This document shows, piece after piece, positions 3,834 to 29,023 of a DNA stretch of 49,631 nt (position 1 is its first letter; every line of letters begins with the position of its first letter). The stretch is from positions 1-49,631 of IMG/VR virus record IMGVR_UViG_3300036985_009087. One strand, written 5' to 3'. The notes below the pieces were generated by a model. That model did not search any database, was not told the DNA's origin, and saw only the letters and a program-made list of their open reading frames with translations. This DNA comes from a virus (lineage: Duplodnaviria; Caudoviricetes). Made by a program: the position numbers and the translations under genes.

Positions 3834-3847
3834 CACACATACATAAT

Positions 3848-4825: not shown

Positions 4826-4828
4826 TTT

Positions 4829-5557: not shown

Positions 5558-7341
5558 AAAAACCATTTGTAGCCATTGACTTTGAAACTTCTTTTTTCCC
5601 TAAACGGAAGATCGGCTTAAAAACCATGGGCGTCGATCAATATCTTTGGCACCCGGAAGTTGAAATTTATCTAGTCTCGGTTTATTCCGATATTTTAGAG
5701 CCTTTTGTTGGTCACCCATACGATATGGATTGGAGTCTTATCAAAGACTTTGATTGGGTCAGTCATAATGCCGGATTTGATCGCCGGGTTTTCCGTAGAC
5801 TTTGCCATTTAAGACCGGAAATTGCTGAGGGCGAAACAAAGTACTGGCAATGTACGGCAAACTTGTCTACGTGGTTTGGCCACCCAAGAGACTTAAAGAA
5901 AGCATGCGCCGCAGTGTTTAATAGCGACATTAGCAAAGACGCTCGGAAAAAGATGGAAAACAAAGCCTATACCGAGTTAAAACATTCAAGCGATTGGAAT
6001 GAAATTTTAGATTACGCCGCTCGCGACGCGTATTGGTGTTGGCGTCTTTGGGATGAACTCGCCGACGCATGGCCTCAAATCGAGAAAGACATATCGGATA
6101 TGACGACTCGGCAAGTCATGCGCGGTTTACCTTGCGATAAAGAGTATCTCGATCGATCAATCAAAAAACTTGAGCGCGAATGCTGGGAAGCAAAGAATAA
6201 TATTCCATGGGCTAGTAACTCCAACGACAAAGCCGTATTAAGTCCTATTGCCTTGGCCGAAGAATGCCGCAAGATTAATGTGGCTCCGCCTAAGTCGATG
6301 GCTGAAGACAATCCTGAAACGCAGCAATGGGAAATAGACAATCTGTCCATTCCGTGGGTCAAAGAAATGCGCCGATATCGGAAAGCAAATTTGTTACTGA
6401 CAAAACTAAGTACGATGAAAAACCGTCTTCGGCCGTACGATGGTCGTTTTGACTTCAGCCAAAAATACTGCGGAGCCCATACAAAGCGCACTTCCGGCGA
6501 CCAAGGATTCAATGTTCAAGGTTTTCAGCGTGATCCATACATGTGCAGCGATAACGAGCGCGTGGATATGCGCCGGGTCATCCATTCAATGGATGGCGGC
6601 AAACTCATTATCGCCGATCTTGCGCAAATCGAACCTAGGACGTTAGCTTGGATTACCGATGACCGAGCTAAAATTGAACTAATCAATAAAGGCGTTTCGG
6701 TCTACGAAGTTCACGCGATTCAAACGTTGGGTTGGTCCGGCGGAAATCTTAAAAAGGAAGACCCTAAAACGTATGCGCTTTGCAAAATGCGCGTCCTTGG
6801 ACTTAGTTATGGCTGCGGATGGCAAAGATTCATTGACTATTGCTTCAACCAGTTCGGATACGAGCTTAGCGATCGTGATTCAAAGATGCAAGTCAACGAT
6901 TTTCGCCGTAAAGAACGGTTGATTGTCGGTTTATGGAATCAACTACAAAGCAAGCTTGAAAATTCAGCCGGTCAAGATTTAGAAATTGAGTTGCCTTCTT
7001 GGAATACTTTAAAGTATCGCGATGTGCGCAAAGTTGCCGGTCAGATTACGGCTACTCTTGCGACTGGACGCGTCAACAAAATTTGGGGCAGTCTGGCTGT
7101 TGAGAATATTATTCAATCTACGGCGAGAGATTGTTTTTACGAGAAGCTCATACAAATCGAAAATGCCGGGATTCCAACGTTGTTTAGCGTGCACGATGAA
7201 GTCATTACGGATGAAATTCCGGAAGATCAACAAAAAGATGCGCTAGAAACCGTCGAAAGTATTATGCGCGGCGAATGCGCGTGGATGCCTGGAATTGCCT
7301 TAGACTCAGAAATCACCGTTAGTCCCTTCTATTTAAAATGA
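5554..7341 (+). CDS. polA: DNA polymerase family A with 3'-5' exonuclease domain
   Basis: ExoI DFET, ExoII HNAGFD, ExoIII YAARD; motif A DLAQIEPR; motif B KMRVLGLSYG; ENIIQSTARD; motif C VHDE. Confidence 0.95.
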   Translation: MKKPFVAIDFETSFFPKRKIGLKTMGVDQYLWHPEVEIYLVSVYSDILEPFVGHPYDMDWSLIKDFDWVSHNAGFDRRVFRRLCHLRPEIAEGETKYWQCTANLSTWFGHPRDLKKACAAVFNSDISKDARKKMENKAYTELKHSSDWNEILDYAARDAYWCWRLWDELADAWPQIEKDISDMTTRQVMRGLPCDKEYLDRSIKKLERECWEAKNNIPWASNSNDKAVLSPIALAEECRKINVAPPKSMAEDNPETQQWEIDNLSIPWVKEMRRYRKANLLLTKLSTMKNRLRPYDGRFDFSQKYCGAHTKRTSGDQGFNVQGFQRDPYMCSDNERVDMRRVIHSMDGGKLIIADLAQIEPRTLAWITDDRAKIELINKGVSVYEVHAIQTLGWSGGNLKKEDPKTYALCKMRVLGLSYGCGWQRFIDYCFNQFGYELSDRDSKMQVNDFRRKERLIVGLWNQLQSKLENSAGQDLEIELPSWNTLKYRDVRKVAGQITATLATGRVNKIWGSLAVENIIQSTARDCFYEKLIQIENAGIPTLFSVHDEVITDEIPEDQQKDALETVESIMRGECAWMPGIALDSEITVSPFYLK

Positions 7342-7841
7342 ACAAACCAATACCAAAATCCCTGCCACAACCACTACCGCACTTCACGGTTTCCGTGATT
7401 CCTTTGGATCCAGAAAACTTGACTACGGCGTTACTCTACCGAGGCGAAGGAGTGCGCTCTGCTAAAAATTGTCTGGCCATTCCATCCGGACTTTTAGAAC
7501 ATGGCGAATCTTTTGAAGAGTCTATCGTGCGAGAACTAGAAGAAGAACTTGGCATACCCGCGGATGCTTGCGGATTCCTTAAATTTCACTCACTTTACCG
7601 GAATATTTTACCAGACGGTTTTGATTGGGTAATCGGAATTTGGAGTATAGAAGTTTCTAACTTGGCGGATCTCGCGAAAAACTGTGAACCCGACAAACAC
7701 GATTACGTGAAAGTGGTGAAACTTTATGAACTTTGGGATTGGCTTAATAATGAAAAGTCTCTTGAATTTGCGCCTAATTTAGCGGAAAACTTAAAACCCG
7801 TTGTCCGCGAAATTCTAATAAATGCCCCGATCGGAAAATGA
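7338..7841 (+). CDS. Nudix hydrolase
   Basis: Nudix box GLLEHGESFEESIVRELEEELG; EPDKH motif. Confidence 0.92.
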   Translation: MNKPIPKSLPQPLPHFTVSVIPLDPENLTTALLYRGEGVRSAKNCLAIPSGLLEHGESFEESIVRELEEELGIPADACGFLKFHSLYRNILPDGFDWVIGIWSIEVSNLADLAKNCEPDKHDYVKVVKLYELWDWLNNEKSLEFAPNLAENLKPVVREILINAPIGK

Positions 7842-8530
7842 ACCCAATCATCATCATTGAAGGCCCGGATGGTTGCGGTAAAACAACATGGTGCAAACAC
7901 TACCAAGCCATGTTCGGTGGAAAGTATATGCATCTTGGATTGCATAAAAATCTATACGCTTATCAGACTATGAGCTTAGTTCGCGCGGTGTATTGGGCGA
8001 AAAAAGTTCCGGTACTCATCGATAGGCATTGGCCTTCGGAACAAATCTACGGATCTGTTTACCGCGGGGCATGTTTGCGTAAAGAAGCCGCTCGGTTAGA
8101 AAAGTTTTGCGAGAGTATTGGTGTTTTTTATGTCGTGGCCATTGGCGATGATGCCGATTCTATGGCAAATTGGCACCAAGAAACTTCGGCTCAGCGTCCT
8201 GAAATGTACTCGCCTGACTCGGACTACCGAAAAGTACTAAATGGCTATCTTGATTGGTGGTCAGGTAAAAGTACTTGCGCCATAAATATCGGCCATTGCG
8301 CTGAAACTAAGCCTATGTGCGCTAAATTTTTTTCGGCCATCCAGTATAACCGCGAAGGGTTTAACGGCCAGACCGGTATTAACAACCATATTCATATTAC
8401 CCAGGTTTTAGCTACAAACTGGCGTAATTTTCGGCTTTCATTAAAAGACAGCAACACCCTCACTAAAAACCAACTCATCGAAGAATGCGGATATGAAGCC
8501 CCAAAAAACAGCAACCAGCGCATGGTTTGA
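7838..8530 (+). CDS. Deoxynucleoside monophosphate (thymidylate-like) kinase
   Basis: IIIIEGPDGCGKTT P-loop; IDRHWPSEQIY motif. Confidence 0.85.
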   Translation: MNPIIIIEGPDGCGKTTWCKHYQAMFGGKYMHLGLHKNLYAYQTMSLVRAVYWAKKVPVLIDRHWPSEQIYGSVYRGACLRKEAARLEKFCESIGVFYVVAIGDDADSMANWHQETSAQRPEMYSPDSDYRKVLNGYLDWWSGKSTCAINIGHCAETKPMCAKFFSAIQYNREGFNGQTGINNHIHITQVLATNWRNFRLSLKDSNTLTKNQLIEECGYEAPKNSNQRMV

Positions 8531-9314
8531 CCTAATAGCAAAAATTACTGCTTCAGGTCAAATTCACAAACCTAGAAACCTCCCTATTCGGGAAATTATC
8601 GGAAATCAAGTCAAATTTGACATGAAGCATCCGATCGTCTTAACTAAGGCTAGAAATCTTAACTACAAGTTTATGGCTGCCGAAGCTTGGTGGATGCTTA
8701 GCGGCCGCAATGACACGGCTTCTATTGGAGAATACTGCAAAGCGATTCTAAAGTTTTCGGATGATGGCAAAACCTTTTTCGGCGCTTACGGCCCGAAAAT
8801 TTCGTCTCAGATTGACTATGTGGTCGGCAAGTTGAAGCAAGACCGCGAAAGTCGGCAAGCCGTCATAAACATCTGGAGAGAAAATCCACCGGAAACTAAA
8901 GACACGCCTTGCACAATTTCTGCGCAGTGGTTGATTAGAAATGGCGAGTTACACTGCATCGACACTATGCGTTCAAATGACGCGTGGCTAGGTTTTCCTT
9001 ACGACGTATTCAACTTCTCGATGTTATCCTGGCATATCATTAATGAGCTCCAAAAAGACGGGTTTAATGATCTTAAACTTGGCACTTTCACGCTGAATGC
9101 CGGATCGCACCATCTTTACGAGCCGGATTGTGAAAAGATTTATGCCCTATCGCTGATAGAGTGGTCTGGCAGTATAGACTTCAATATTTGCGCCGGCGGA
9201 GAATCCTGGCCAATCCTGGATCAACTGGCGTGGGTTTTAGGTAAAACTGAAAATCCAGAAGGCTCAAAAAGCGCATTTTTCACGGAGTTCAAATCGAAAC
9301 TTGTCTCCAAATGA
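8493..9314 (+). CDS. Thymidylate synthase homolog, probably a dCMP-type hydroxymethylase/methylase
   Basis: AYGPK, SRQAVINIW, catalytic DTPCT, MRSNDAWLGFPYD, GSHHLYE; Asp at the substrate-specificity position. Confidence 0.85.
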   Translation: MKPQKTATSAWFDLIAKITASGQIHKPRNLPIREIIGNQVKFDMKHPIVLTKARNLNYKFMAAEAWWMLSGRNDTASIGEYCKAILKFSDDGKTFFGAYGPKISSQIDYVVGKLKQDRESRQAVINIWRENPPETKDTPCTISAQWLIRNGELHCIDTMRSNDAWLGFPYDVFNFSMLSWHIINELQKDGFNDLKLGTFTLNAGSHHLYEPDCEKIYALSLIEWSGSIDFNICAGGESWPILDQLAWVLGKTENPEGSKSAFFTEFKSKLVSK

Positions 9315-13592: not shown

Positions 13593-13633
13593 GAAGGGTC
13601 CGGGGTAAATTCCCCGGGCCCTTCATTTTTTTT
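13593..13633 (+). terminator. Rho-independent terminator
   Basis: GAAGGGTCCGGGG-TAAATT-CCCCGGGCCCTTC stem (one G-U pair) followed by a T-tract. Confidence 0.85.
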
Positions 13634-13634
13634 G

Positions 13635-13676
13635 TTTACACCCTATAAGCAGCTAGCTATATTCTCCACTGTCATG
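13635..13676 (+). promoter_or_regulatory. Sigma70-like early promoter, copy 4
   Basis: TTTACA-17 nt (containing AGCAGCTAGC)-TATATT, then GTCATGAG start 10 nt later. Confidence 0.65.
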
Positions 13677-14411
13677 AGTACACAAAACACCAATAGCCAA
13701 ATCCTAGACAAAATCCGCAATCTCCTCAAAATGGCCGACCCCGCCAACGGTGCTACGACCAATGAAATGGAAATTGCTTTCAAAAAAGCCCGCGAATTAA
13801 TGACTCGCCACGGTATTGAGCAGATGCAACTCAACGAAAATCCCGAGGACAACACGATCGGCCAAGAACGCATCAATACTGGCCGCCGCAAACGCGACGA
13901 GGACCGCTGGATTCCTGCCGTAATCCACCAGGTCTTCGACGTCAAAGTTATCTACTCTGCGCAGTGGGACTCGGCGGCCGGTAAAACTGGTAGCTACCGG
14001 CATGTCTACGTATTCATCGGTGAAAGTCTCGATGTGCAAGCCGCCAAAATTGCTTTGCCTTTGGTTTACGAAGCCATGAAAACAGGTCTAAACCGGTACC
14101 TTAAAATGATGGACGTCTCGTGGAATTCTACGGTGGCCAACTCATTCTTTCGCGGAGTCGCTGACGGTTTCATCAAAGAATCAACGCATGGTCGCCAAGC
14201 CGCAATGCGTAAATTCAAGCAAGAAGAACAAGATCGCTTTGCGATCGTTCTCGCCGACAAGAAAAAACGCATCTCTGCCTGGGTCGACCAGAATATGAAT
14301 GTGACTGCCGGACGCCGTAGTACTAGTCGTGCTCGGCATGATGAGTCCGCTCACCACTACGGTCGCCAAGTCGGCGCCGCAATTGACTTCACCACGAAGA
14401 TTGCCGCCTGA
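13674..14411 (+). CDS. DUF2786 domain protein
   Basis: ILDKIRNLLKMA...EMEIAFKKARELMTRHGI; SFFRG and G-x-x-x-G C-terminal motifs; start moved to the ATG after the terminator and promoter. Confidence 0.85.
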   Translation: MSTQNTNSQILDKIRNLLKMADPANGATTNEMEIAFKKARELMTRHGIEQMQLNENPEDNTIGQERINTGRRKRDEDRWIPAVIHQVFDVKVIYSAQWDSAAGKTGSYRHVYVFIGESLDVQAAKIALPLVYEAMKTGLNRYLKMMDVSWNSTVANSFFRGVADGFIKESTHGRQAAMRKFKQEEQDRFAIVLADKKKRISAWVDQNMNVTAGRRSTSRARHDESAHHYGRQVGAAIDFTTKIAA

Positions 14412-17400
14412 CTTCGCGCATCGCGTCGCGTACCATATCTTCCCATTCCTCTTCGGTTGACGAAGAGCGGTAGACACCCCGCCGCCTGAGAAGTTCCTCA
14501 GCGCGGCGGCGATCGTTTAACCAGGCGTCACGGTTAAAAGAGCCGTCGTCGTTAGAATACCGAGGGTTATATCCTGGCATATAGGACGCTTGAGATAATG
14601 GGCCTCTGTCTGTATTAGGTAATGCTGTTTCGGCAAGACCTGGACCATCCTGGTTAATAGGAGGCCCCATTTCTTCGGGTATAAAGTCCGAATCTAGCAA
14701 AACTTGGCTGAGGTCTTTTGGAAGTGCTTTTGAGCCTGCACCAGCAACTGATTCGAGCTTGATGTAAGTTGTGCCTCCTTTGTTTTGATTCGAAACAACA
14801 CGGAATTCTGTGTTTGGTGCTATGGCAATTTCAGATTCAATATTTTCGCCAGTAATTCCACCAACATCTATTGCGTTTGCTCCTTTTTTAAGATCAATTG
14901 TGTAATAAACAAGCCTGTCACTCTTGTTCAACTTTGTCTGGAATTTACTTTCAACTTTGTCCTTGTCCAGTGAAGCTGATGTTATTCCTCTGTCGCTTAA
15001 AATGTCTCCTTTTTTGAGTTGGAAAATTTCATCTCGCTTGCCAACTGGAAGAACAACACCTCTGTATACAGTTTGATCTTCTGGCAAAACTGATTTTTGG
15101 AATGCAGAAAGAAGATCTTCTATGTATTTTTGCCCCAATTCATCATTCCAATAATCTTTGTATTTTGGTTGGCCATATCTAAGGACTGACTGAATGTTTG
15201 AATATCCACCAACTTCAGAACTGTAAGTTCCATTCTGATATTCCTTTACTGCATCAACTTCTTCTTGAGAAATCGGCATATAGGAAATGTTCGGCGGCAC
15301 CACGCTGCGCATTTCGTCGCCGGATTTTTTCCACTTTCCAGGAGAATAGTTTCCGAACTTTAGTGGTTTTTCGTCAAATAACTTTTCGCGAACGCGGGCA
15401 GCATCTTCAGATACGGTGTGCGAGTAAAGGTATTTTTTCTTAAGCTGTTTTGCGATCTTTGCAATTTCGCGGTATAGAGCCTGGCCGTAACCGCGTCCTC
15501 GATATTTTTCTTCGACCCAACTTCTTCCTATAGTGATCGTGCTTGGACTGTCATGCAGATAAATATCGGCATCTCCGATCAACTTTCCATTTGGCAGTAG
15601 AATCCCTACCCGAGCGACTTCAAAAAATTCTAATTGCTCGTCAGTTGGCTTATTGACTTTGTATTTTGGTAGATTTTTCTTTGTGCGGTTAAGCGCCGCT
15701 TGAGTTGGCATGAAACTTGGAATCCCTTGCGCAACTTTACTAAGTGATTCTCCCTTGCCAAAATAGCGGTGGACATTGAGTGGATTTGTATTTTTTACAA
15801 GTACTTTGATAGAACCCGACTCGCTAGATCCTAAAGCCTCGGCTTCGACATCGTCAGCCACAAAAGCTTCATTTAATAGTTTTACTAAGGTCGACGTATC
15901 ATTCGAATCCACCGCGTTTCTAACCTGACTGGATTTTTCGTAATACGACTCGTATTCTTCTGGATTACGCCAATTCCTTCTAGCATGAGCCATTAATTTA
16001 TTCTCGGTAGAATCCGGATCTAACTCGATCGTAAAATCTCGGTCGGCGTAAATTGATGTCTCGACTCTTTCCGGGGTCGAATCTTCTCCGTAATCCCGAT
16101 AAATTGCGGCTATCGTCACCAGTTTTTTTCCAGGCCGCGCGATAAGCTCAGATTCATTGACATAGCGACTACTAGCGTTTAGTTCGGAAACGTCAATGGC
16201 CACGGAGTCTGAATCCAATACCGTCGACAATACTAACCCGTAGTCTCCTGGAAAACCTTTGCGATTATCTTTTTCGGCTTCAGATTTATTGCGCAGCCAT
16301 TGCATTGTCGACGCAAAACTATCCATTCCGGTATTGCTTATCTTTGTGGCAAATCTGACGGCGACTTTAGGATCCGTTGACCAAGACTCGTATGCCGATG
16401 AATCGACTTCTAGCGTGTCTCCTACTTTCAACCCTTCGATAAGAGGACCGTTTAGTGCAATTCCTCTAAAAGATTCTACAGGTTCTCCGGTGTACGGTGC
16501 CGCGCCTTCGATACGCCAGAGTTCATTGCTCTGCCGGTTTTCGTTAACATAGTTGCTGATAATCTCGGCGATTTCTTTAGTGTTAAAACTTTTCGGGTCA
16601 TTAAGAAGTCTAGTGACCGATGAACGCGCGCGTTTTATATCTGCGGCATCCCCATTTTTAACGGATCTATTCAATTCCCGCAACCACGAACTAAGTTCTG
16701 AACTAGGTAAAGATCTTCCTTGTCGGGGTTTTTGCTCTTGCATGAACACCGAAAATACCGGGTCCGCGGCGATAGCGGCGAAATCATTTTCATTACCGGT
16801 TTTTACATATCGGGCGACCATGTCTTTAAGTCGGTTTCGATCCCGAAATGCGGCGTTTACGCTCTGCATGTGTTCCGGCGTTAATCCAACTTCGCTTAAG
16901 ACCGTCGGCATGAAAGATCCAGCGGGTCCGCCAAAGTCAGAGGATAGTCGCAGGTCTCTATCAACATTTCGACTATATGCTCTAACATCCCGGGCATTTG
17001 CAATGAGATTAAAGGCCGCCATGAGATCGGGAGCATTGCTAAACTTAGAAAACAGGAGTTCGTCGGTATTATGGATAGCGTTATTTAAACGGTCCATATA
17101 GAAAAGCCGCTGATCTCGCGTTTGAGCGCCTTCTAAACCTTTTAAGAATTCGGTAACAAAATTCCAAACGTCATTTCTGCAGCGCATATCACTGCGGTAT
17201 GTTCCGCGCATAAGTTCATCTAGTTGACTAGCGGACTTCGCGTTTTTCAAAGCTTCCTTTGTGACAAAAGGATCTACGCGGCCTCGGCGAATATACTTGT
17301 TGATTTGATTTTTGACAAGATCCGAAAACACATTAAGGTAGAGATCTTTGTATTTTTTGATGTACTCGTTCTGCAGAGACCGTCCGTATTCATTTCCAGG

Positions 17401-20400
17401 ATCTCCTTCAGTCGAGATATAATACAGATTGTAGAGAGTCTTCGGCGTCAATCTAGACTCTGATTTTTCTCCACTCTCAAGCCCATATTCTTCGCTAGGC
17501 ATGAAAGATGCCGGAGGATTTTTATGCCCGTCTGCTTTCGACCATTGCAAATATTCTTTGTAGAGTTCTGGTTCAAAACTTGTGGCTTGTATGATGGAGT
17601 TTAAATCCTGCATAGTCGCCAATTCTAAAGCTTTTTGGAAACTCTCAGCGGATATGCCTTGAAGCATATTCCAAGCACTCTCGTGAATTTTCAGGACTTC
17701 TTCGCCATACGCGTTTGAGAATGTGTGGATACTTGTTTCTTTAGCCGAATCTTTGAGGGCTGTTTTTATAAGCTTAAAAAGCTGCAATTTCCAAGGGTCT
17801 CCTCCGACTTGTAATTTCTCAAATTGCGAAACTTTTGGTGGCCATGCGACGCCTTCTTTCCAATATTCTAAGATATTTTTCTTGCTGCCGTACGCGTCGT
17901 ACGCGTCGTTAAACGAGAACAAATCGTCCGTGGCAAAACTGCTTTCGCCGTCCTCGGTTTCCGTCTGGTCGGTTTCCAGCTGGTAGAGTTCTTTTTCGCC
18001 GGTCGGTTCTTGTAAACTCTTATTGATCTTGGTTTCGACAAGAGGAACCCAAACGCCGCTAGAATTTTTGTATTCCAGAAATTCTGGCGGAATAGTCTCC
18101 AAGGCGCCCATGTCATCGGTCGAAAGATAAATTTCACCATTGAAAGGATCAAACTGAAGTCCCATTGGAGTAGTCTTGCTGTATGTTCCGTAGGCTTCTA
18201 CCAGTTTGTTTTTATTGACGCGAAGTAGAAAACTTGTTTCTGAGTAGCGGTCGTCGTAAACTTGGGTATTTTTTGGAGTATTTCCGAAATAAACTCCCGG
18301 GCCGGAATAACCATCTTCAGATGGTAATAGTCCTTTTTCGGTAATTGAAGCTATGACGTCCGGATCATTTGCAGTTAAATGGTAAATATAGGGGTCGGTC
18401 GTGCCGAAAATAGGTTCATTCGCCGGAGTCGGTGGCTTCTTATTTGAGACAGGCTTAATGCCGGAAGTTAAAGCTTCATTGGTAACGGCCTCTATAAATT
18501 TATAGAATTTTGGTAGTTTGCCGAAATGTATTTGACTAGTGTCGAAACCTGATTTTTTAAGTACTTTATCAACATCAGTTTCAATTTCGCCGGTATCCGG
18601 ATTGACAATGGCTTTTAAAACCGGGATAAGGTCGTCCATCGAATAAGCTCCGCCAAAATACCCTTTATTTTGCTGGTCCCAATATTCCGACATGAGCGTC
18701 TGCCTGCTTTTTTCAAGCCACGTATCGATAGCCGAAGGAATCCCGAAAGTTTTCCATCCCAAATAATTATCAGCATCCGATGGCGCGGGTTCAATATAGG
18801 CGTCGGTAATTTGCTTGGCTAAGTCTACGCCGACAATACCCGGTAATTCTTTTGCTGTAATTCCGTTTGGCCAAGACCAGTTTGTCTGTAGTACATTTAA
18901 ACCGTCTTGATTAAATGCATGGATAAAATAATTTCCCGCTTGGTTTACCGTAACGTTTATATTATCCCAGTTTTCTTTGTTAGCTTCTTTGCCATTTGCT
19001 TTTATGACGGCGTTAATTTTAGACTCAGGTGATGTTACCGCTGGAGTTGGGTAATGCGCTGTTGAGAATGCTTGAAGGACCCAAGTATGCGCGATCGTTG
19101 TTGGAGGCGGCGGGATAATTCCGGTTTTTTTCCAAACTTGTTGTAAGTTTTGCGCAACTTCACCGGTATCCGGATTAATTATTGCGTCCAGTATGACTTG
19201 TTTTTCGAAATCGGAAAAGTATCCGGCGTTTTCCGACATCATTGCGGCTTTCCAGTCTTCCGCGGATTCAAATTGGTCGGGCAATACTCCTTCTAGTACG
19301 GGTTTAGGAATATTTAATTGGGCTAAAGCTGATTGTTCATACGGCGGAAGCGTTGCGTTCTCGTCGGCGTGTTCTGCAACAGAATCTTTTATGGTTCTGT
19401 CGATAGCTGCGACTATTTCTTTAGTCATGCCGTAGTTTAGAAGCGATTCATCCGACATTCCACCAGTTAAAACACTATGCGGAATACCTTCAGCTATTCC
19501 GTTTTCGTATACTTCTATGGCTTTTAAAATCATCTTTTCTCCGACATAAGCCGCATCCTCATCGGCGTACCCGCTTACTAAGTTGCTTACATCGTAATAA
19601 CTCAAGCCAAAGTCTTTAAAATTATCGGCAACGTATTTATCAAGTGCCGAAGGATCTATTTCTTTTGGCACTGTTGGAGCGGTCTTTTCTTCCGACGCGT
19701 TCATGAATGCATCTGTGTATGCATCTGATATCCATTTAGTGGTAGCCGGGTGATGTTTTGCGTAATCTTCAAAAGTGTAGTCTGGTGGTTGGCCCAAAAT
19801 TTTCATTAAGGCTTGCACCTTTTCTTTATTGCTAAAAGCGGACATTTTTCCGGCACTCTCAGCTATAAGATCTAAAATTTGTGATGTTTGGTCGTCGCTT
19901 AGAAAAAATTTAGGGTGACCGTTTGCTACTTCTGTCCATTTCTTTTTCCAAGCACTTGCTTCGGGCTTTGCCTGGGATTTAAGTTTTATGGCTTCTCCAA
20001 TTGCCGCTTTAATAAAATCCACCTGTTGACTATACGTAGCATTTACGCCAGATTTATTTTGGATAAATGACAAATCCGTAGTCAACTCGCCTGTTTTTTC
20101 GTCAACGATAGCTTCAAGAAGTTTTTGAGCCTGGTCTTGGCTGTAAACAGGTCCGGTATTAGACTTATAGATGTTTTGCGTTTGCAGCGCATCGAGCATC
20201 TGCGATTTCCATTTCTTTTTCCAAGCACTTGCTTCGGGCTTTGCCGGAGATTTGAGTTTTACGCCAGCCTCTAAAGCTCTAAAATTTTCTTTTAGCTTGT
20301 CTTTAAGTTCTTTGGCTGTAGTTCCGGAAATTTCGAATAACGTTTCATCCGGATTATAATAGAATTCGACAGGTTCTTTCGGCCCTTTTTTACTAATGGC

Positions 20401-23400
20401 AATGGTTTTTACGGGTAAAGTTGTATGATGTTCAGCAACGTTTGTGGCAATGTATGTTGCCATTCCAGTTGGAGTAGAAACCTGAAATTCAGTTTGTTGA
20501 CCAGTAGTCTTTCCGATCAGTGTCTCTCCTAGAAAATTTAAGTGGGATTCAGTAAAAGGTTGTTTTTTCTTGATTCCTAAAGAGGCTTTAATAAAATCGG
20601 AGTAAAGCAGAGCAATATCGTTGTGGTCTTCAACGGAAGTTGGGACAAGACCTTCGGCTAATGGATCAATTTCGTCAATCGCCGCGCCGCTTTCGTCTAC
20701 AGCAACTAAAATTGTGCTGCTATAAGGGTCTCCTTGTGGGTCGTATCCGCTACTATTTTCTAGTTTAAAAGAATACTCGCCAACCCGAAACGTATTTTTC
20801 TTGCCGGTAACTAAATCTTGTGCGCCTTGCAAAATTTCACCATCTGATATTTTTACCCCGGCGTCGGTTTGTTGCGGTTCATCGGAGTTGTTTATCAACT
20901 GGGCATTTTCTACGGCCGACTGTTCTGCTAGTTTTTGATTTTTGACATTCTCAAAAATCTGTTTTATTTCTTTAGACGCCAACACGCCTACGGGTCTTGC
21001 ACCCATTTTTTCGGAGATCAGTAACTGCGCTAGTTCGATAAAAGCTTTTGGCGGAAGTGCGTTTACTGTTTTTTGAACGCCATTCTGGTTAATAAGTTGA
21101 GTAATAGGATGGACGTATGTTTTTAAATTGCGCGATAAATACCTGCTTAACTCTACCGAAAAATCTTTACCAGATTCTTTTTTAGCTGAAACGCCAATTC
21201 TTGAATAAATCGAGTTTCCGGGTTTCATTTTTTCGATAAACTCCGTAAGTTCTTTAACCGTTTCAGGTGTAACTTCATCGGCAGCCGCTTTCTGAAGAAA
21301 TTCTTTTGTCGGCGCGTTGACGTTTCCAAAATTCTTAAGAACTATAAGGCCCAATTTTTTCAAATCTGAAGAAACTAGTGGAAGTAATTCGCGAGGATTT
21401 TTCAAGTGGTATTTGAAATCCAGCATTTCCATAACCCACTGGTACCCGCCATCCTTTGCGTACTTTTCAATTTTGTTGAAAACGGTATTGGTATTATGCT
21501 GCAAGTCGTAAACTTTGTCGATGGCGAAGGCTATTTTTTCCGGCGTATTGGCATAGTGCAGCAAAACAAAAGCTTCGGCGATTTGAGCCCATTTTTCTCC
21601 GCCATAGCTGGAATTCCAAATTCCTTCGCGGAATACTTTTGCCATTTCTAAAGCCAGATCTTTCCTGCGCGCTTTAGAAAAATCTTTTCCTGCGTAATTC
21701 TCTAGTGCCCGAGTAGCGGCTTGCCAAGATTTTTTACGGATATTTTCCGAAGTTTCGAATTCTTTTGGTACACCGGGTATGCGACCTACATACGGACTTG
21801 GAGCGTCATACGCAGAAAAGTATTTGATATATTGATTCATGATCGGGCCATAGATGGCCGGATCTTGAGCTCTCTTAATTGCGTGCCGTATTTCAGCGGA
21901 GAGCGAAAAGAATACTTGGTCGAGTAAATGCTCTTTTAAGAAAGTTTGTAGACGGTCTTGCGTGACTTTTACGATAGGACGGTAATCTTCAGATTGGAGG
22001 AAACTAATGGCTTCTGGGTTTTCTCCAGAATATTTTGCTAGACTCGCTTCACTAAGACCCGCCAGATTTCCTTGAAACGGAACATCGGAAAAACCAGAAA
22101 GATAATTGATAAGATAGAAATCTGCCATTAACGTCCTAGGATCGCTAGGAACCGTATAATTCAAATTCGGCATGAAGTTGATCTTCATCTTGCCGTAGTC
22201 AACTGGCAATTTTGGAGATGCCGATTCTTGAAAATGGTTTATGCGGTCAACCCTTGCTGACATAATCAACCGGTCTGGTGAATCTTGTCCTTTTTTAGCT
22301 TTGATCTTGGTCCGCATCGGGTTTAAAGCCTCTGTGCCTTTGTCAAATAAGTTAAAGAAGTCGTTGACACGATTTTTCTTCAACTCGGCTACGGCATCGT
22401 CTGCGTCTAATCTTTCTCCAACGTACTGATTTGACGAGTTTTTGCCATCGCCTGTCAAACCCGCGTTGTGGTTGTTCAAGACTTTAAGTAGATCTTGCCA
22501 AAAGCTAAAAGTATCGCCATTCCAGAGTGTCAAATTTTCAGGAAATTTTGAAGACCAAACATTCAACTTATCAAACATCCGGCTAACCGAAATTGAAGTG
22601 AACAAGAAGTTTTGCTTTTGGCTGATACGCCAGCTTAAAGGCACAATGTCTCGAACGCGCGGGGCTAGTGAACGCGCTTTTCCTCCGCGGTAGACAGCCT
22701 GATAATCAATAATTGCCCGAGTTCCGTCTTTGCGTTGCAACATGGCATTGCCTTCGGCAATAATTCGTTTCAGTCTAGCCGGAACAAGATTGTTAGGCAA
22801 GTTCAGAACGGCTTGTAACTGCGCAGGACTTAAAACACCAGTTAGAACACCGTTGTTATCCACATCGCGCATTTTAGGCATGCCATCCTCAGGAGCACTA
22901 ATAATAGCATCATAAATAATCTTGCCGCGTTTAGTTGCTCGAGCATTAGCTTCGCGTGGAGAAATTACAACAGGCGTCCCATCCGGATTCCGCCGAATCC
23001 TAAAGTCAGTTTCAACTTTGGATCCATTAGGCAAAGCACTCAAATTTACTGGTTGACCAAGAACAATCTCATTACCGGCTTCATCCACGATCTTCCCGTC
23101 TTTCATGTAGTACTGGGCGATATATGGATCAAGTCCTACTCCGTCAGGGAGGACAACTTCGGATATTTTATTACCCGCATCGTCGTAAGCCGCCAGAACC
23201 TGATCTTTAACGAATCGATCGTCGGAAATATATTGTTCCTGAAGGGCCGGACTTGACATGACTACGGCCCATGGAATATCTCCGTCATCCCGTACTTTTT
23301 CGGTACCATCAGGATTTAGTCCGTCAGTTTCGAAGGTGTACGACCCAATTTCATCGCGTAACAAACGCGTGACGCGGCGCATCAGTGCCGAAGATTCTGG

Positions 23401-26199
23401 GTCGATCTTTGCTCCTAAAGCTGTCGAAAATTGGCCTTGGCTATCGAATATAATTCCGCGACTGCGCAAAGCCTCTTTTAATTGCTTCAAAGATCCGTTC
23501 CGAGTTTTTGCTTCAATCCAGTCTACAATAGCTTGACCGGGTGAATCAGCCGCTGCGCGCAGACCGCCTTTAACATTTCCGGATGTCGCGTAGTTTTCTA
23601 CGACCATTTCCTCACGAACATACTCTAAGAATTTATCGACGCTGTCGAATTGATCTATAAACGATTGTCCTCCCATGCGAGCAGCATAGTTTTGACCATA
23701 CCGCATAACCTCGGCTTCGCTATAGATACCGGGAATTTCGGCAATAACTTGGCCGTTGTCGTCTTTAATTTTCCGCCCGAACATTTGCTGTTCGAGTTGC
23801 TCTAAACCTAAAGCGTCGCGGACTTCTTTAAACTGTTTTAATACGTGGAAACTTTCATGCCGCAGGGTGTGGCCAGGATTGAAACCTTCTCTTCCAAGAT
23901 GGGAAAGAAGGTTTCCATTCAAAGCCACAATAGGAGAGTCCAGGTTTGCCGGAATCAAATGCGCAGGCTGATTAATGTAATGATTTTTGTGAAGTGCAAA
24001 GCCGCGCGTACTTTTTGCCGCTTCCACCATATCGCTAGCGAGCTTAATGGTCTGGTCGGCTTTTTGCAGTAATTCGGCTTCATTCGGTTCTAATGTTAGT
24101 TTGCCGGCAATTTGACTACGGAAGAATTCTGCATCAGCTAAAGTTTTTCCCCAAATTTTACGAATTTCCTCTTCGGCATTTGCGTCGTCTAGAATTTTAA
24201 AGCTTGGGCTGCCTAAACCGGCTTGGTTTCCTATAGCTTTAAGTTGTTCTAAAGCGTCTGCAAAATCTAACGTGACTTGGCGCTGAACTTCGTCGGTAAA
24301 CTGCTTGTTGTTCTTATTCTTATCCAGCAAATTCCGGTGGTTGATTAGCGTATTCATCTCGTCTTGCCAGAATTTCCACTCTTGACCATTTTTAGTCGAA
24401 TCGCGATAAGTCTGGAATTGCTTTATTTGCCCGTCGAGTGTCGCAATCCGAGCATTAACATCAGAAAACACGTTTATCTTAGACTTTACGTTTTCATCCG
24501 CTAAATCCATGAATCTTGCAATATCGGCGTCCTCGTCTGCGCGACGCGATCCCGGATCCGGATCAATAAACTGATCTATTTTTGTACTGAAGTTAGTCGT
24601 CGGATCAAGAAGAGCACTTACTCGGCCGACCGGATCTGAACCCATGACAAGGCCGATGCCTACGCCAGTTCCAAGTGACTGGCCGAGTTGCGTAGGGTTC
24701 TCAATTTCAGGCAACCCTAACATAACGTTTAACGCCGCGCCACTAGTTCCAGCTCGAGTCATTGCGCCAGTATAACGGCCAATCCAATCGGCGGATCGCG
24801 CGCGCATAAGACCGCCTTTTGTCGTGCCAAAAAACCGGCGATTAAACTCGCTAGAACGGGCATCTCCACCTATTTTTTCAGCTAGTCCTTTCCGACCGCG
24901 CATTCCTTGTTTGTCAATTTGGCGGCCCGCATCTCTAAGTAAACGTCCAGTTCCGGTTAAAATTTTTCCAGAAAGGTACGTCGGAACTTGTGGGACTAAG
25001 CTAATATTTTTCAGTAAAGTGTCAGGATCGCCGGTCAAAACTTGACTAAGTTTACGTCCGGCTATGTTTGAAAACTCCGAAGCTTTTTCCAAACCCATGC
25101 CGACGGCTTCAACAGGATGCAAACCTTTAATCGTCCCGGTCAAAGCTTTGGCTGTTAAATCTGTACCTTTACGGAACGGTTTTGCGATAACTTTCGAGAC
25201 CGGTCGAACTAGTCTATTCGGTAATCCGATTGGGTTAAAGATTTCCCCGGCCAGAGCCATTTCTTTATCCGGCACAATGGACTTTTCAAGGATGCTCTTT
25301 CGGTAATCTTCTTGCGCAACGTCTAGTTGCTCTGGGGTTAATTCGACACCTTGTAATGCCGAAGTCGTGGCTATAATCGGCTTAACAAGTGGGTTTTCTG
25401 CTAATAAGGCCGCAGCGCGATCAGGATTTTCTTTAGTTTTTGCCGCGGCTTCGCGCGTCATGTAGGTCCGGTTTGCAAAATCTTTAAAGGATTCTTTTTC
25501 GGTCTTTGTACCTAAAGCTTCTTGGACTCGGTCGGTAAAAGAACTTCCAAAGTTGTAAAATTTGGTAGCGGATCCGGCAGTTTCCTCTAGATCATTAGCC
25601 AGACCAGAAGCTACAGAACGAAGCGCAAGTTCTGCGTCTGCCGCTTCTTTGGCTTGTTGCGCATTTCTATCCCAAGGATGAAAAAATTTACTACCGGCAA
25701 GTGGACGGCCTGCGCCCGGACCAAATTGCGTAGCATAAAGACGTTCTCCGCCTAACGCCGTAGAAACTTTATTAACTACTTCGGATGCCGCGTCAACAGG
25801 CAAACCAACAATGTCCGATAATGCTCCGGCAGGATTTGCTACGACTTGATCAACCGCGGCTTCTTTTGTAAATTTACCAAGTCCTATCCCGGTATCTACG
25901 ACCATTTTGGCGACCCTAGGAAGAAAATTTGTGGCGACTTCGACAGCTTGGTCTGCTAAAGGTTGTTCCCGCTGCTTCTCAAATACAACTTTCAGTTGTT
26001 CTTGATCGAGTTCTGGATCGCCTTCGTTATAGCGTTTGTATAACGAATCTGGATCTTTGTCTTTTTTACGGCGTATGATTTCTGAAGTCGGTACTTTAGA
26101 CTTCAGCTTTTCGCGTATTTGTTCGGATGCACTAACTGACGAAGGAGGCTGTTGGCCTCCTTCTCTCAGACGTTTTCGGATTTCTTCAGAAGCGAGCAT
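14389..26199 (-). CDS. Giant (3936 aa) polyvalent internal virion/ejection protein with HExxH metallopeptidase motif, three ADP-ribosyltransferase-like domains and a GNAT domain
   Basis: HESFH (23845-23859); YHLT..GL.P..GPGVYF..GE..IPPEFL (~18040-18400); FRG..SWST..ESE (~16130-16480); VEEKYRGRGYGQALY (~15470-15520); VYRG..TSAS..ESE (~14750-15250); last gene of the morphogenesis arm. Confidence 0.85.
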   Translation of the reverse strand: MLASEEIRKRLREGGQQPPSSVSASEQIREKLKSKVPTSEIIRRKKDKDPDSLYKRYNEGDPELDQEQLKVVFEKQREQPLADQAVEVATNFLPRVAKMVVDTGIGLGKFTKEAAVDQVVANPAGALSDIVGLPVDAASEVVNKVSTALGGERLYATQFGPGAGRPLAGSKFFHPWDRNAQQAKEAADAELALRSVASGLANDLEETAGSATKFYNFGSSFTDRVQEALGTKTEKESFKDFANRTYMTREAAAKTKENPDRAAALLAENPLVKPIIATTSALQGVELTPEQLDVAQEDYRKSILEKSIVPDKEMALAGEIFNPIGLPNRLVRPVSKVIAKPFRKGTDLTAKALTGTIKGLHPVEAVGMGLEKASEFSNIAGRKLSQVLTGDPDTLLKNISLVPQVPTYLSGKILTGTGRLLRDAGRQIDKQGMRGRKGLAEKIGGDARSSEFNRRFFGTTKGGLMRARSADWIGRYTGAMTRAGTSGAALNVMLGLPEIENPTQLGQSLGTGVGIGLVMGSDPVGRVSALLDPTTNFSTKIDQFIDPDPGSRRADEDADIARFMDLADENVKSKINVFSDVNARIATLDGQIKQFQTYRDSTKNGQEWKFWQDEMNTLINHRNLLDKNKNNKQFTDEVQRQVTLDFADALEQLKAIGNQAGLGSPSFKILDDANAEEEIRKIWGKTLADAEFFRSQIAGKLTLEPNEAELLQKADQTIKLASDMVEAAKSTRGFALHKNHYINQPAHLIPANLDSPIVALNGNLLSHLGREGFNPGHTLRHESFHVLKQFKEVRDALGLEQLEQQMFGRKIKDDNGQVIAEIPGIYSEAEVMRYGQNYAARMGGQSFIDQFDSVDKFLEYVREEMVVENYATSGNVKGGLRAAADSPGQAIVDWIEAKTRNGSLKQLKEALRSRGIIFDSQGQFSTALGAKIDPESSALMRRVTRLLRDEIGSYTFETDGLNPDGTEKVRDDGDIPWAVVMSSPALQEQYISDDRFVKDQVLAAYDDAGNKISEVVLPDGVGLDPYIAQYYMKDGKIVDEAGNEIVLGQPVNLSALPNGSKVETDFRIRRNPDGTPVVISPREANARATKRGKIIYDAIISAPEDGMPKMRDVDNNGVLTGVLSPAQLQAVLNLPNNLVPARLKRIIAEGNAMLQRKDGTRAIIDYQAVYRGGKARSLAPRVRDIVPLSWRISQKQNFLFTSISVSRMFDKLNVWSSKFPENLTLWNGDTFSFWQDLLKVLNNHNAGLTGDGKNSSNQYVGERLDADDAVAELKKNRVNDFFNLFDKGTEALNPMRTKIKAKKGQDSPDRLIMSARVDRINHFQESASPKLPVDYGKMKINFMPNLNYTVPSDPRTLMADFYLINYLSGFSDVPFQGNLAGLSEASLAKYSGENPEAISFLQSEDYRPIVKVTQDRLQTFLKEHLLDQVFFSLSAEIRHAIKRAQDPAIYGPIMNQYIKYFSAYDAPSPYVGRIPGVPKEFETSENIRKKSWQAATRALENYAGKDFSKARRKDLALEMAKVFREGIWNSSYGGEKWAQIAEAFVLLHYANTPEKIAFAIDKVYDLQHNTNTVFNKIEKYAKDGGYQWVMEMLDFKYHLKNPRELLPLVSSDLKKLGLIVLKNFGNVNAPTKEFLQKAAADEVTPETVKELTEFIEKMKPGNSIYSRIGVSAKKESGKDFSVELSRYLSRNLKTYVHPITQLINQNGVQKTVNALPPKAFIELAQLLISEKMGARPVGVLASKEIKQIFENVKNQKLAEQSAVENAQLINNSDEPQQTDAGVKISDGEILQGAQDLVTGKKNTFRVGEYSFKLENSSGYDPQGDPYSSTILVAVDESGAAIDEIDPLAEGLVPTSVEDHNDIALLYSDFIKASLGIKKKQPFTESHLNFLGETLIGKTTGQQTEFQVSTPTGMATYIATNVAEHHTTLPVKTIAISKKGPKEPVEFYYNPDETLFEISGTTAKELKDKLKENFRALEAGVKLKSPAKPEASAWKKKWKSQMLDALQTQNIYKSNTGPVYSQDQAQKLLEAIVDEKTGELTTDLSFIQNKSGVNATYSQQVDFIKAAIGEAIKLKSQAKPEASAWKKKWTEVANGHPKFFLSDDQTSQILDLIAESAGKMSAFSNKEKVQALMKILGQPPDYTFEDYAKHHPATTKWISDAYTDAFMNASEEKTAPTVPKEIDPSALDKYVADNFKDFGLSYYDVSNLVSGYADEDAAYVGEKMILKAIEVYENGIAEGIPHSVLTGGMSDESLLNYGMTKEIVAAIDRTIKDSVAEHADENATLPPYEQSALAQLNIPKPVLEGVLPDQFESAEDWKAAMMSENAGYFSDFEKQVILDAIINPDTGEVAQNLQQVWKKTGIIPPPPTTIAHTWVLQAFSTAHYPTPAVTSPESKINAVIKANGKEANKENWDNINVTVNQAGNYFIHAFNQDGLNVLQTNWSWPNGITAKELPGIVGVDLAKQITDAYIEPAPSDADNYLGWKTFGIPSAIDTWLEKSRQTLMSEYWDQQNKGYFGGAYSMDDLIPVLKAIVNPDTGEIETDVDKVLKKSGFDTSQIHFGKLPKFYKFIEAVTNEALTSGIKPVSNKKPPTPANEPIFGTTDPYIYHLTANDPDVIASITEKGLLPSEDGYSGPGVYFGNTPKNTQVYDDRYSETSFLLRVNKNKLVEAYGTYSKTTPMGLQFDPFNGEIYLSTDDMGALETIPPEFLEYKNSSGVWVPLVETKINKSLQEPTGEKELYQLETDQTETEDGESSFATDDLFSFNDAYDAYGSKKNILEYWKEGVAWPPKVSQFEKLQVGGDPWKLQLFKLIKTALKDSAKETSIHTFSNAYGEEVLKIHESAWNMLQGISAESFQKALELATMQDLNSIIQATSFEPELYKEYLQWSKADGHKNPPASFMPSEEYGLESGEKSESRLTPKTLYNLYYISTEGDPGNEYGRSLQNEYIKKYKDLYLNVFSDLVKNQINKYIRRGRVDPFVTKEALKNAKSASQLDELMRGTYRSDMRCRNDVWNFVTEFLKGLEGAQTRDQRLFYMDRLNNAIHNTDELLFSKFSNAPDLMAAFNLIANARDVRAYSRNVDRDLRLSSDFGGPAGSFMPTVLSEVGLTPEHMQSVNAAFRDRNRLKDMVARYVKTGNENDFAAIAADPVFSVFMQEQKPRQGRSLPSSELSSWLRELNRSVKNGDAADIKRARSSVTRLLNDPKSFNTKEIAEIISNYVNENRQSNELWRIEGAAPYTGEPVESFRGIALNGPLIEGLKVGDTLEVDSSAYESWSTDPKVAVRFATKISNTGMDSFASTMQWLRNKSEAEKDNRKGFPGDYGLVLSTVLDSDSVAIDVSELNASSRYVNESELIARPGKKLVTIAAIYRDYGEDSTPERVETSIYADRDFTIELDPDSTENKLMAHARRNWRNPEEYESYYEKSSQVRNAVDSNDTSTLVKLLNEAFVADDVEAEALGSSESGSIKVLVKNTNPLNVHRYFGKGESLSKVAQGIPSFMPTQAALNRTKKNLPKYKVNKPTDEQLEFFEVARVGILLPNGKLIGDADIYLHDSPSTITIGRSWVEEKYRGRGYGQALYREIAKIAKQLKKKYLYSHTVSEDAARVREKLFDEKPLKFGNYSPGKWKKSGDEMRSVVPPNISYMPISQEEVDAVKEYQNGTYSSEVGGYSNIQSVLRYGQPKYKDYWNDELGQKYIEDLLSAFQKSVLPEDQTVYRGVVLPVGKRDEIFQLKKGDILSDRGITSASLDKDKVESKFQTKLNKSDRLVYYTIDLKKGANAIDVGGITGENIESEIAIAPNTEFRVVSNQNKGGTTYIKLESVAGAGSKALPKDLSQVLLDSDFIPEEMGPPINQDGPGLAETALPNTDRGPLSQASYMPGYNPRYSNDDGSFNRDAWLNDRRRAEELLRRRGVYRSSSTEEEWEDMVRDAMREVRRQSSW
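19936..20245. repeat. 37-bp perfect direct repeat within the giant ORF (19936-19972, 20209-20245)
   Basis: CCATTTCTTTTTCCAAGCACTTGCTTCGGGCTTTGCC twice, 273 bp apart; encodes AKPEASAWKKKW. Confidence 0.95.
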
Positions 26200-27563
26200 T
26201 ATTCTTGTTTAGCTTGTTGAATTATCAGTCCTTCTAATTTTTTATACAACTCTGAATACTCTTTTGAAGCAGGATCTACCTTAACAATTCGTTGGTCAAG
26301 TTCATTAATTTGATCTTGTAATTGGGTCTTTACCGCTGCACTTTTGAAATATCCAGAAACGTCAAAACCGCCGTCTTTGGCCGAATTTAGATAGTTGCTT
26401 CTCGAAGACTTAAGTTTCTTTTCAAGTTGTTCCATTAAACCCTCGGCAAGTTCGGATTCCGTTCTTACATTCGGCACCATCGATTTGTAGCGCGCCACGT
26501 CTTCATTTGTCAAAACGCCAACTTCGCCAAAGACTGATCTAGCTAATCCTGGGACAATGCTTTCAACAAGTTTATTGAGTCTTTGCGCCCCAACGTCGTA
26601 AGGATTTTTTTCCTTGAAAATACCGACTAACGGTCCGCGGGTTACATCTTTCATCCGCGTTTTAATGTCTTGCAGTGATGCTCCTAACTCGTCATATTGA
26701 GCCATTCTTGTCACAAAAGTGTCGGTTACTGGTCTCCCTTCGCCTTTTGGTTTTACAGTTACGGTTCCACTTGGAGTTTTATAAGTTTGCGACGTAATTT
26801 CGGATCCCTCAGGTATTTTTACTGCGCCTAAGGGAGAATCACTTTTATCGTATGGATCGCCTACACGTTTGCCAGTAATCCGATCCATGAGTATAACTTT
26901 GTTGGTTCCTTTAATAGGCACTTCTACGAATGGCGATGGGAGTTCGGATTGCGCCAATGGCGCGGCACTTGCAGGCGCTCCCGCTTGTCGATTATCGTAC
27001 GAAAATTGTTCGACTGCTTTTCCAGGTTTTTCTGTAAAACCAAATCCAAATTTACTGCCAGACGGAATATCTTGCGGAAATAACGAGGCGCCTACATCAC
27101 CTAATGACGTAGTTCCGGTAGGCAAAGCTTCTGGCGGTAAAGGACTGTAGTAGTTTGCCGCAGTTTGTTCGCGCCGTTCTTTATCTATTTGAAGTTTCGT
27201 TAGCGTGTCTTTGAGCGTATTATCTTCGGACTTTAAGTCGGCGAGATAGACATTTTGTAAAAACTGGTTGAGATCTTCTTCTTCCTCTAGCTTGGCTTTT
27301 TCTTTTAATAGTTCTTTTTCGTGTTCTTGCTCGAATCTTTGAGATATGCCTTCGGCTACACCTTTGACGCCGAGAGTGACGCCAGACAAGAGATTTTCAG
27401 TTGCTTGCTGTTGACCTCTCATCCAAGTGTCAATTCCTGGATCAGGAAGATTCCCAACATCAGGAACAAGACTGGCACCACTAACAAAATCAAATCTTGG
27501 TCCTTGGACTGTCGCAAGACTTTGCCTTTGTGGTGTTGAAAACTGAAATCCTCCTGTTTGCAT
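26199..27563 (-). CDS. Probable internal virion/ejection protein
   Basis: 454 aa, coiled-coil rich, GVLTNEDV motif; directly upstream of and coupled to the giant protein. Confidence 0.6.
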   Translation of the reverse strand: MQTGGFQFSTPQRQSLATVQGPRFDFVSGASLVPDVGNLPDPGIDTWMRGQQQATENLLSGVTLGVKGVAEGISQRFEQEHEKELLKEKAKLEEEEDLNQFLQNVYLADLKSEDNTLKDTLTKLQIDKERREQTAANYYSPLPPEALPTGTTSLGDVGASLFPQDIPSGSKFGFGFTEKPGKAVEQFSYDNRQAGAPASAAPLAQSELPSPFVEVPIKGTNKVILMDRITGKRVGDPYDKSDSPLGAVKIPEGSEITSQTYKTPSGTVTVKPKGEGRPVTDTFVTRMAQYDELGASLQDIKTRMKDVTRGPLVGIFKEKNPYDVGAQRLNKLVESIVPGLARSVFGEVGVLTNEDVARYKSMVPNVRTESELAEGLMEQLEKKLKSSRSNYLNSAKDGGFDVSGYFKSAAVKTQLQDQINELDQRIVKVDPASKEYSELYKKLEGLIIQQAKQE

Positions 27564-27565
27564 AA

Positions 27566-28114: not shown

Positions 28115-28117
28115 AAA

Positions 28118-28618: not shown

Positions 28619-28646
28619 AACTACTCCTCCTTATTATTTTGTTTCA

Positions 28647-29000: not shown

Positions 29001-29023
29001 ATTTTTATTTATTGTTGGTTTGA

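Follow-up and report, generated by a model that had tools for sequence, protein, structure and literature searches.

Base-resolved exchange of an ADP-ribosyltransferase cassette, likely recent, at linker motifs of a polyvalent-type phage protein

Polyvalent proteins of phages have been proposed to arise by domain accretion and perhaps by cassette recombination, the latter raised for loci of Verrucomicrobium spinosum; in the sections consulted, the paper in question (Iyer et al. 2017, PMC5512222) gives no mapped junction. The locus described here raises the question of whether such an exchange can be traced to named bases. The window, by which we mean the whole stretch of 49,631 bases analyzed, is a virus contig; replication genes lie to the left, tail/structural genes to the right. 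Its giant ORF (14389–26199, minus strand, 11.8 kb) encodes a 3,936-aa protein, P0001, at the 3′ end of which a preliminary description placed a recently exchanged cassette bounded by SYMP motifs. The relevant parts of the gene are as follows.

14389–26199, minus strand: polyvalent protein gene P0001; the N-terminal trunk is conserved and is followed by linker-separated modules
22177–23001, minus strand: conserved trunk domain, function unassigned, used as lineage marker
22168–22179, minus strand: NFMP linker, which closes the conserved trunk
17497–17508, minus strand: SFMP linker, an occurrence of the [FY]MP tripeptide
16906–16917, minus strand: SFMP linker, likewise
16144–16470, minus strand: second, native R-S-E ART-like module (FRG, SWST, ESE; hhalign probability 69%, E = 4.5e-5)
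15706–15717, minus strand: SFMP linker, another occurrence of the tripeptide
15286–15714, minus strand: GNAT module, CG-rich, of the recipient lineage, variable among sisters (PF00583, E = 2.4e-7)
14702–15273, minus strand: foreign ART cassette of 570 bases (aa ∼3643–3833), an Alt/VIP2-type R-S-E ADP-ribosyltransferase, assigned by its 86.7% nucleotide identity to L005, by PF03496 (E = 5.5e-11) and by CpG
14389–14701, minus strand: native tail, comprising a 34-aa spacer, the last SYMP (14575–14586) and a 63-aa C-terminal module (92% nucleotide identity to L002)

Pfam matches in P0001 include a GNAT domain at residues 3534–3601 and the ADP-ribosyltransferase (ART, PF03496) at residues 3643–3816. 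The [FY]MP tripeptide occurs six times (aa 1342, 2899, 3096, 3496, 3640 and 3873), with a degenerate DFIP at aa 3838. For the second ART-like module, a weak profile match is found in 4/4 lineage members, and the trunk domain has no match at 0.9 in the Atlas, where the best reaches at most 0.81. Elsewhere in the gene, 18373–18387 (minus strand) encodes IYHLT and then a stretch with G-L-L-P and G-V-Y-F, a combination that presumably resembles a His-type domain of the ART superfamily, although no profile matches it. Directly downstream of the giant gene lies a DUF2786/DUF7168 gene (13632–14396, plus strand) that is missing in the sister locus L002 and has a 66% nucleotide match in the distant L004. 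Two fibre-like genes with PATR repeats occupy 41317–45745 (minus strand).

The CG counts that first drew attention to the ART module are exact: 2 dinucleotides in 14881–15180, compared to 24 in 15301–15600 (observed/expected CpG 0.21 versus 1.56). The GNAT module had served as the CG-rich control, and while its count stands, the module is itself variable, being 38% identical to that of L002 and 88% identical over 144 aa to that of P0158. With amino acids held fixed, the segment from SYMP to SYMP contains 12 CG versus 36.3 ± 4.5 expected (z = −5.4). The amino-acid null under-predicts CG, with z values of −0.4 to +4.3 for the other six segments of P0001, and is therefore conservative for this segment. 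Synonymous options to form CpG are used at 12/128 positions in the segment, at 715/2130 in aa 1–3639 and at 320/3260 in 11 genes of the structural arm; elsewhere in aa 1–3639, the lowest 233-codon window holds 26 CG. In dinucleotide distance, the segment is closer to the arm (82) than to the remainder of its own gene (188).

Change-point analysis places the left switch at 15291–15237 with a codon model (95% interval) and at 15291–15207 with CpG only (best point 15273). Hence the SYMP at 15274–15285, to which the switch had been assigned, falls inside both 95% intervals after amino-acid control. The right change point depends on the model, at 14593 (14790–14553) for CpG alone and 14710 (14734–14692) for the codon model. 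The earlier statement that CG-rich sequence resumes near the last SYMP therefore describes CpG correctly but not the end of the foreign DNA, which is at 14702 instead. A 118-bp stretch of the native tail is CpG-poor too (observed/expected 0.61 here, 0.68 in the sister).

Module and flanks differ in their nearest relatives, as the preliminary description would have it. The flanks belong with L002, a sister that is CG-rich throughout, with 98.9% trunk identity and ∼90–92% nucleotide identity over most of the gene. The match of L002 to the window, at 91–92% nucleotide identity in the flanks, runs as far as 15268 and is taken up again at 14701. In the interval L002 carries a second GNAT and a FYHG-type domain, and directly inside the cassette the match falls to 19/50 and 12/50 nt. 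The cassette belongs with L005, which encodes P0007, and L001; these are CG-poor (observed/expected 0.65 and 0.70), with 43% trunk identity to the window. L005 matches 15278–14702 at 86.7% nucleotide identity, with 39 synonymous and 21 non-synonymous codon differences among 190. L001, which starts within the ART, matches 168/176 nt (95.5%) over 14877–14702 and stops at the same base, 14702, as L005. Directly outside the cassette, donor-type sequence matches at 15/34 and 11–13/52 nt. The switches between the two types fall at the following features.

15268–15285, minus strand: left junction, with the SYMP linker at 15274–15285 and the crossover zone, where sister- and donor-type sequence overlap, at 15268–15278
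14719–14730, minus strand: KALP, a linker of the donor lineage imported with the cassette, then the start of the repeated KDLSQV leader
14692–14702, minus strand: right junction; the donor match ends at 14702 and the sister resumes at 14701
14677–14688, minus strand: DFIP, a degenerate recipient linker (DFMP in L002)

At the left junction, sister- and donor-type sequence overlap by 11 nt over the M-P-I-S codons, the linker being SYMP in the recipient and KYLP (KYLP-IS) in the donor. At the right junction there is an imperfect microhomology of ∼7 nt, with one mismatch, over Leu-Asp codons. The crossover there (14702/14701) lies between the donor KALP and the recipient LDSDF[M/I]P, 17 nt past KALP, 13 nt before DFIP and ∼115 bp before the last SYMP. 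Both switch points are thus resolved to ∼10 nt, at linkers and in frame, and the two have no site in common. Exchange at SYMP bounds, as originally put forward, applies to the left end (15268–15278) but not to the right. The last SYMP (14575–14586) was rejected as the right boundary, since 14701–14587 is native and 14701–14550 matches the sister at 141/152 nt. Because L002 also carries the DLSQVTLD leader (32/38 nt identical to L001), a two-step history of the right junction is conceivable, in which insertion via the KDLSQVTLD leader common to both lineages would have been followed by deletion to the next Leu-Asp. The junction may have formed in one step or two; both fit the data equally. Internal translation starts at the linker Met were dismissed, as donor linkers carry Leu codons such as CTT and CTC.

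The discordant relatives, together with the change point at SYMP, support the original proposal of a recent exchange of a motif-bounded cassette. At the level of sequence, we regard as confirmed a real exchange, resolved to the base, at linker motifs in a polyvalent-type protein, and its recency as likely. The CpG observed/expected value is 0.35 over 14702–15273, and about 0.34 compared to 0.46 in the ART of L005. The cassette is no nearer in CpG to the recipient gene than is the L005 copy, and this lack of drift would fit a recent transfer from a CG-poor lineage.

The slot that follows GNAT-YMP is hypervariable, occupied by two other modules in P0158 and by none in P0157, which goes directly to the spacer. 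The ART is absent from 12/12 further members of the cluster, seven of which span the whole slot, and is found in 0/5 other family records. The ART allele is seen on one contig and the sister allele on 14; a 30-mer across the junction has no matches in viral contigs, a set that may exclude near-identical records, and no junction-spanning fragment occurs among shorter proteins. In the family at large, the ART subfamily scores strongly in 3/49 proteins, from three lineages, with a profile built without the rows of the window and L005. In one of these records, P0008, the ART likewise follows an FMP. The second GNAT of L002 (L002:17600–18062) opens with the donor lineage's DLSQVTLDERKAKLP leader and is 46% identical to a GNAT of P0007; with its intermediate CpG (1.21), it is likely an older import from the donor lineage.

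The cassette had also been said to share the CG-poor signature of the structural arm, and the reason is that the arm consists of donor-type DNA too.

27380–36188, minus strand: CG-poor structural arm, DNA of a donor-type (KALP-linker) lineage; CG-poor sequence continues to ∼39.5 kb

From 27361 to 36188, the arm is 99.07% identical in nucleotides to L013, with the switch near 27370–27379. After its arm, L013 has its own CG-poor polyvalent gene, with NALP/KALP linkers and 87% trunk identity to P0007. Against the sister genome G002, whose arm is CG-rich, the arm is 65–79% identical in 500-bp bins outside a CG-rich island near 40–41 kb, and 67–79% identical within 27380–36188. Because the arm is 99% identical to donor-type L013, the genome is, by sequence comparison, a mosaic of two parental lineages, with the ART a small patch of the CG-poor one. 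The arm itself is not supported as the physical source of the ART: L005 is 87% identical in the ART but only 70–76% in the arm, and ART homologues reside in polyvalent genes. The comparisons support an origin of the ART in another phage's polyvalent gene rather than in the arm.

Along the window in 500-bp bins, sequence up to ∼27.37 kb is CG-rich and 79–98% identical to G002, and sequence from 27.38 to 36.19 kb is CG-poor and 94–100% identical to L013. The CG-rich island at ∼40–41 kb is 85–92% identical to G002, and 48.5–49.5 kb is 96–98% identical to G001, the record of L001. The palindromes CCGG, GTAC and ACGT are avoided in the arm, L013, L005 and G001 (observed/expected 0.0–0.46) but not in the CG-rich part (27380–39400 compared to 1–27370), a pattern suggestive of restriction-site avoidance confined to one parent. 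L001 and L013, which could be parts of one genome, both lack CCGG but do not overlap each other. At 101–9314 (plus strand) lie genes for a PALP enzyme, dCMP deaminase, DNA polymerase A and NUDIX, along with thymidylate kinase-like and thymidylate synthase-like genes, possibly a DNA base-modification cluster. Modified DNA could be the reason that the CG-rich parent keeps its palindromes. Of this gene set, only a deaminase homologue is present in G001 (65% complete). As for hosts, the source of one relative gives it the label Terrimicrobiaceae, and a prophage/host search of GTDB genomes gave 110 pattern matches, none confirmed.

What the cassette encodes can be predicted from its motifs, to which we add a putative protease region far upstream in the protein.

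15061–15063, minus strand: Arg3713 of YRG, the ART catalytic R (invariant in 18/18 rows)
14971–14982, minus strand: TSAS motif with Ser3741 (invariant in 18/18 rows)
14830–14838, minus strand: E-x-E motif with Glu3788 and Glu3790 (invariant in 18/18 rows)
23500–24150, minus strand: zincin-like motif region, with HESFH at 23845–23859 and a downstream invariant Glu

As judged from these residues, the R-S-ExE motif is intact. The match to PF03496 scores 42.6 bits (cut-off 23.4), and profile comparison finds Vis (E = 5e-19) and VIP2 (E = 2.4e-12). A structural model of the domain (pLDDT 90.7) retrieves Vis (E = 1.5e-13, TM 0.69) and VIP2 (E = 2e-10) with Foldseek, along with C3-like folds. Its best viral structure matches include head-morphogenesis proteins, minor capsid fusions and Alt-like proteins, the Alt-like entries ranking 24, 25, 48 and 49 at 14–18% identity, below other VIP2-like proteins; we do not class the domain as a T4 Alt orthologue. 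Sequence profiles and the model thus both point to membership in the Alt/VIP2 (R-S-E) clade. E-x-E usually marks arginine-specific ARTs. The enzyme is predicted to ADP-ribosylate host proteins, and an injected, host-modifying role is suggested by analogy; the gene is on the same strand as, and downstream of, the tail/structural genes.

HExxH is kept in 25/27 full proteins, and its H, E and H and the downstream Glu are invariant in 15/15 rows. Pfam peptidase matches to this region are weak (best E = 0.0038, in 2/15 members), and Foldseek gives no match at E ≤ 0.001. We infer that the region is a candidate processing protease.

To place the linkers in a wider setting, we assembled 59 trunk-bearing sequences (33 loci and 26 proteins), from which removal of three with <300 aa after the trunk and of seven duplicates left 49, representing 21 lineages. 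In these proteins, the linker pattern, which was defined after the sequences had been seen, has a density of 3.54 per 1000 aa after the trunk, compared to 0.30 before it. Exchange candidates were taken as segments common to different lineages at ≥15 points above trunk identity. Among the ends of such segments, 30/55 lie ≤12 aa from a linker, versus 7.1 expected, although some of these segments may be conserved rather than exchanged and conserved domains stop at linkers with or without exchange. When the segments are collapsed to 13 modules, 11/25 ends lie ≤5 aa from a linker, versus 1.6 expected and a maximum of seven in 2000 shuffles. There are two other linker-to-linker cases, one with 85% identity against a core identity of 49%, the other with 78% against 59%.

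Codon choice at the linkers is also skewed. The linker Phe is TTC in 50/56 instances versus 29.5 expected (14 lineage representatives), whereas elsewhere Phe before an A-starting codon is TTC in 165/281 versus 135 expected. In ORFs of >900 aa, with a few cases outside the polyvalent gene, TTC is used in 47/48 cases of F-M-P, compared to 38/59 of other F-M (P = 7e-6). One caveat here is that linkers within one gene may share ancestry, so that TTC counts are not independent and TTC fixation may reflect common descent of the linkers. Linker DNA is homogeneous within a lineage and differs between lineages (FMP, YMP, ALP, YLP). CATG avoidance is not supported as the cause of the donor ALP/YLP linker, given a CATG observed/expected of 0.90 in G001 and the retention of FMP in L052 at 0.41.

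Comparison of the window with L002 gives 10 breakpoints inside the gene; six of them are in the central region, where the nearest linker is >1 kb away, and shuffling therefore occurs elsewhere too. This central region (18725–19988, minus strand) has repeated units (two copies of KPEASAWKKKW) and three gaps relative to L002, all far from FMP linkers, and may represent a second, repeat-driven mode of variation. Linker-bounded modules of low GC3 relative to their gene are seen in L021 (161 aa, 0.40 versus 0.75), L046 (137 aa, 0.28 versus 0.59) and L029 (130 aa, 0.47 versus 0.70). These are candidates for further recent imports.

Since the switch points lie at linkers and module and flanks have discordant relatives, the cassette was likely swapped recently at linkers. 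In its full form, the explanation we favor, and hold to be probable, is that DNA of a distant CG-poor lineage entered the polyvalent gene of a CG-rich phage by recombination at linker-codon microhomology, adding a predicted ADP-ribosylating enzyme. The competitor of most weight, though a rather improbable one, accepts the exchange and denies the linker any role as DNA: illegitimate recombination would occur anywhere, and only in-frame joins of whole domains carrying a protein-level signal, for cleavage or docking, would survive. This idea draws on the right junction, where ∼7 nt of imperfect microhomology sit off both KALP (by 17 nt) and DFIP (by 13 nt), on the divergence of motif DNA between lineages, on the L002 breakpoints far from linkers and on the retention of HExxH in nearly all full proteins. 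It accounts less well for a left crossover inside linker codons, where two linker dialects overlap by 11 nt, or for a synonymous Phe position near-fixed at linkers beyond context, which protein-level selection alone does not predict. That there was no exchange at all, the low CpG reflecting amino-acid composition or chance, is barely credible. Short stretches do fluctuate, as the CpG-poor native tail illustrates, but composition is controlled for in the z of −5.4 and the discordant relatives have sharp edges.

An assembly chimera of two co-occurring phages is unlikely to explain the cassette. The sequence is a single contig with no independent match to the junction, and between 27379 and 31480 the arm does not differ from L013, with a 16-nt exact match to both parent types at the arm junction. 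Around the cassette, in contrast, the longest exact match between donor and sister is no more than 12 nt, which is below usual assembler word lengths. Furthermore, neither of the two known donor copies is identical to the ART (8/176 nt differ in L001), the reading frame continues through both ends, and similar linker-to-linker swaps occur in other records. The doubt thus weighs more on the arm junction than on the cassette. Systems of the integron or shufflon type pair a dedicated recombinase with a fixed recombination site at both ends. A site-specific recombinase that swaps cassettes at linker DNA in this manner would be in keeping with linker DNA homogeneous within lineages and with exchange ends clustered at linkers, but it is very improbable: donor and recipient do not have the same conserved core, itself only ∼8 nt long, the right junction falls outside the motif, and the two junctions share no site. 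No recombinase family was found in 33 ORFs of the window (Pfam), which may be an incomplete genome, or in 32 sequences (PHROGs). One candidate, 3848–4825, was dropped because it matches only unnamed viral clusters.

The protein resembles polyvalent proteins, as described in the sections consulted of PMC5512222, in that unrelated domains are strung into one giant chain next to structural genes, with HExxH and an ART adjoining a GNAT. At 3,936 aa, with an ART, a GNAT and a second ART-like module, and with an architecture that varies among sisters, it has the large, variable architecture of the class. A Pfam scan of P0001 gave no ART-PolyVal, PcfJ or LPD family match; among 14 sequences scanned, relatives carry zeta-toxin domains, with ART-PolyVal in two and PcfJ in four. 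The R-S-E clade fold and motifs of the cassette are those of T4 Alt and of MuF-fused Alt/VIP2 ARTs (PMC5512222 and PMC9503650, both in part). Unlike these, it spans ∼190 aa in the interior of a 3,936-aa protein, as a cassette that is neither stand-alone nor MuF-terminal. Where PMC5512222 treats the Alt/VIP2 clade, it is said to be absent from genuine polyvalent proteins; contrary to that statement, the polyvalent-type protein described here contains an Alt/VIP2-type ART. The main text of the same paper contains no 'FMP', 'short motif' or 'shuffling', although its supplementary files may show the motif. In the polyvalent-protein literature, judged by titles and listings, no account of this linker was found, the one 'FMP motif' being that of an unrelated adenovirus paper.

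A near-identical mosaic segment in a diverged background is familiar from phage mosaicism (PMC2327257 and PMC10684548, in the sections consulted). Joints made by lambda Red in very short identical blocks are documented in the former (Martinsohn et al. 2008), but unlike the homeologous mosaicism treated there, the flanks in our case are non-homologous apart from the linker codons. The relevant part of PMC10684548 reports recent cross-family mosaicism for receptor-binding proteins alone and is silent on polyvalent proteins and linkers, a comparison that must be read with the taxonomic distance of our two lineages unassigned. As in polymorphic toxin cassettes and MuF toxins (PMC3482391 and PMC5576092, from the portions at hand), enzymatic modules are replaced by recombination; those toxins are variable C-terminally and come with partner immunity genes, whereas this cassette is internal and one of several slots.

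The favored explanation would involve several steps. Both lineages may have co-infected one host, as the mosaic of both in this genome suggests; linker codons would then have supplied 7–11 nt of microhomology and set the frame, and selection would keep joins that leave whole domains. T4 Alt is packaged and injected, and modifies RNA polymerase (PMC5512222, in excerpt). By analogy with Alt and other polyvalent proteins, P0001 would be packaged and injected. An MPTase with HExxH and a downstream Glu is predicted to autoproteolyse polyvalent proteins, according to the same excerpt, and the linker may perhaps serve also as a cleavage site for the protein's own HExxH domain, making it a candidate motif at which the predicted autoprocessing would cut.

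Both phage mosaicism and ART effectors are already known. What this locus adds is one exchange resolved to ∼10 bases per end, with both parent types found, which makes domain swapping testable at named bases. Tentatively, we raise the further possibility that the [FY]MP/[AYF]LP linker is doubly coded: its near-fixed codons would act as an in-frame crossover site across 43% trunk identity and different dialects, and its peptide as an HExxH cut site that frees each enzyme. If so, injected effectors would be traded within the family in plug-and-play fashion, and the present genome would represent a fresh swap for which both parent types have been found.
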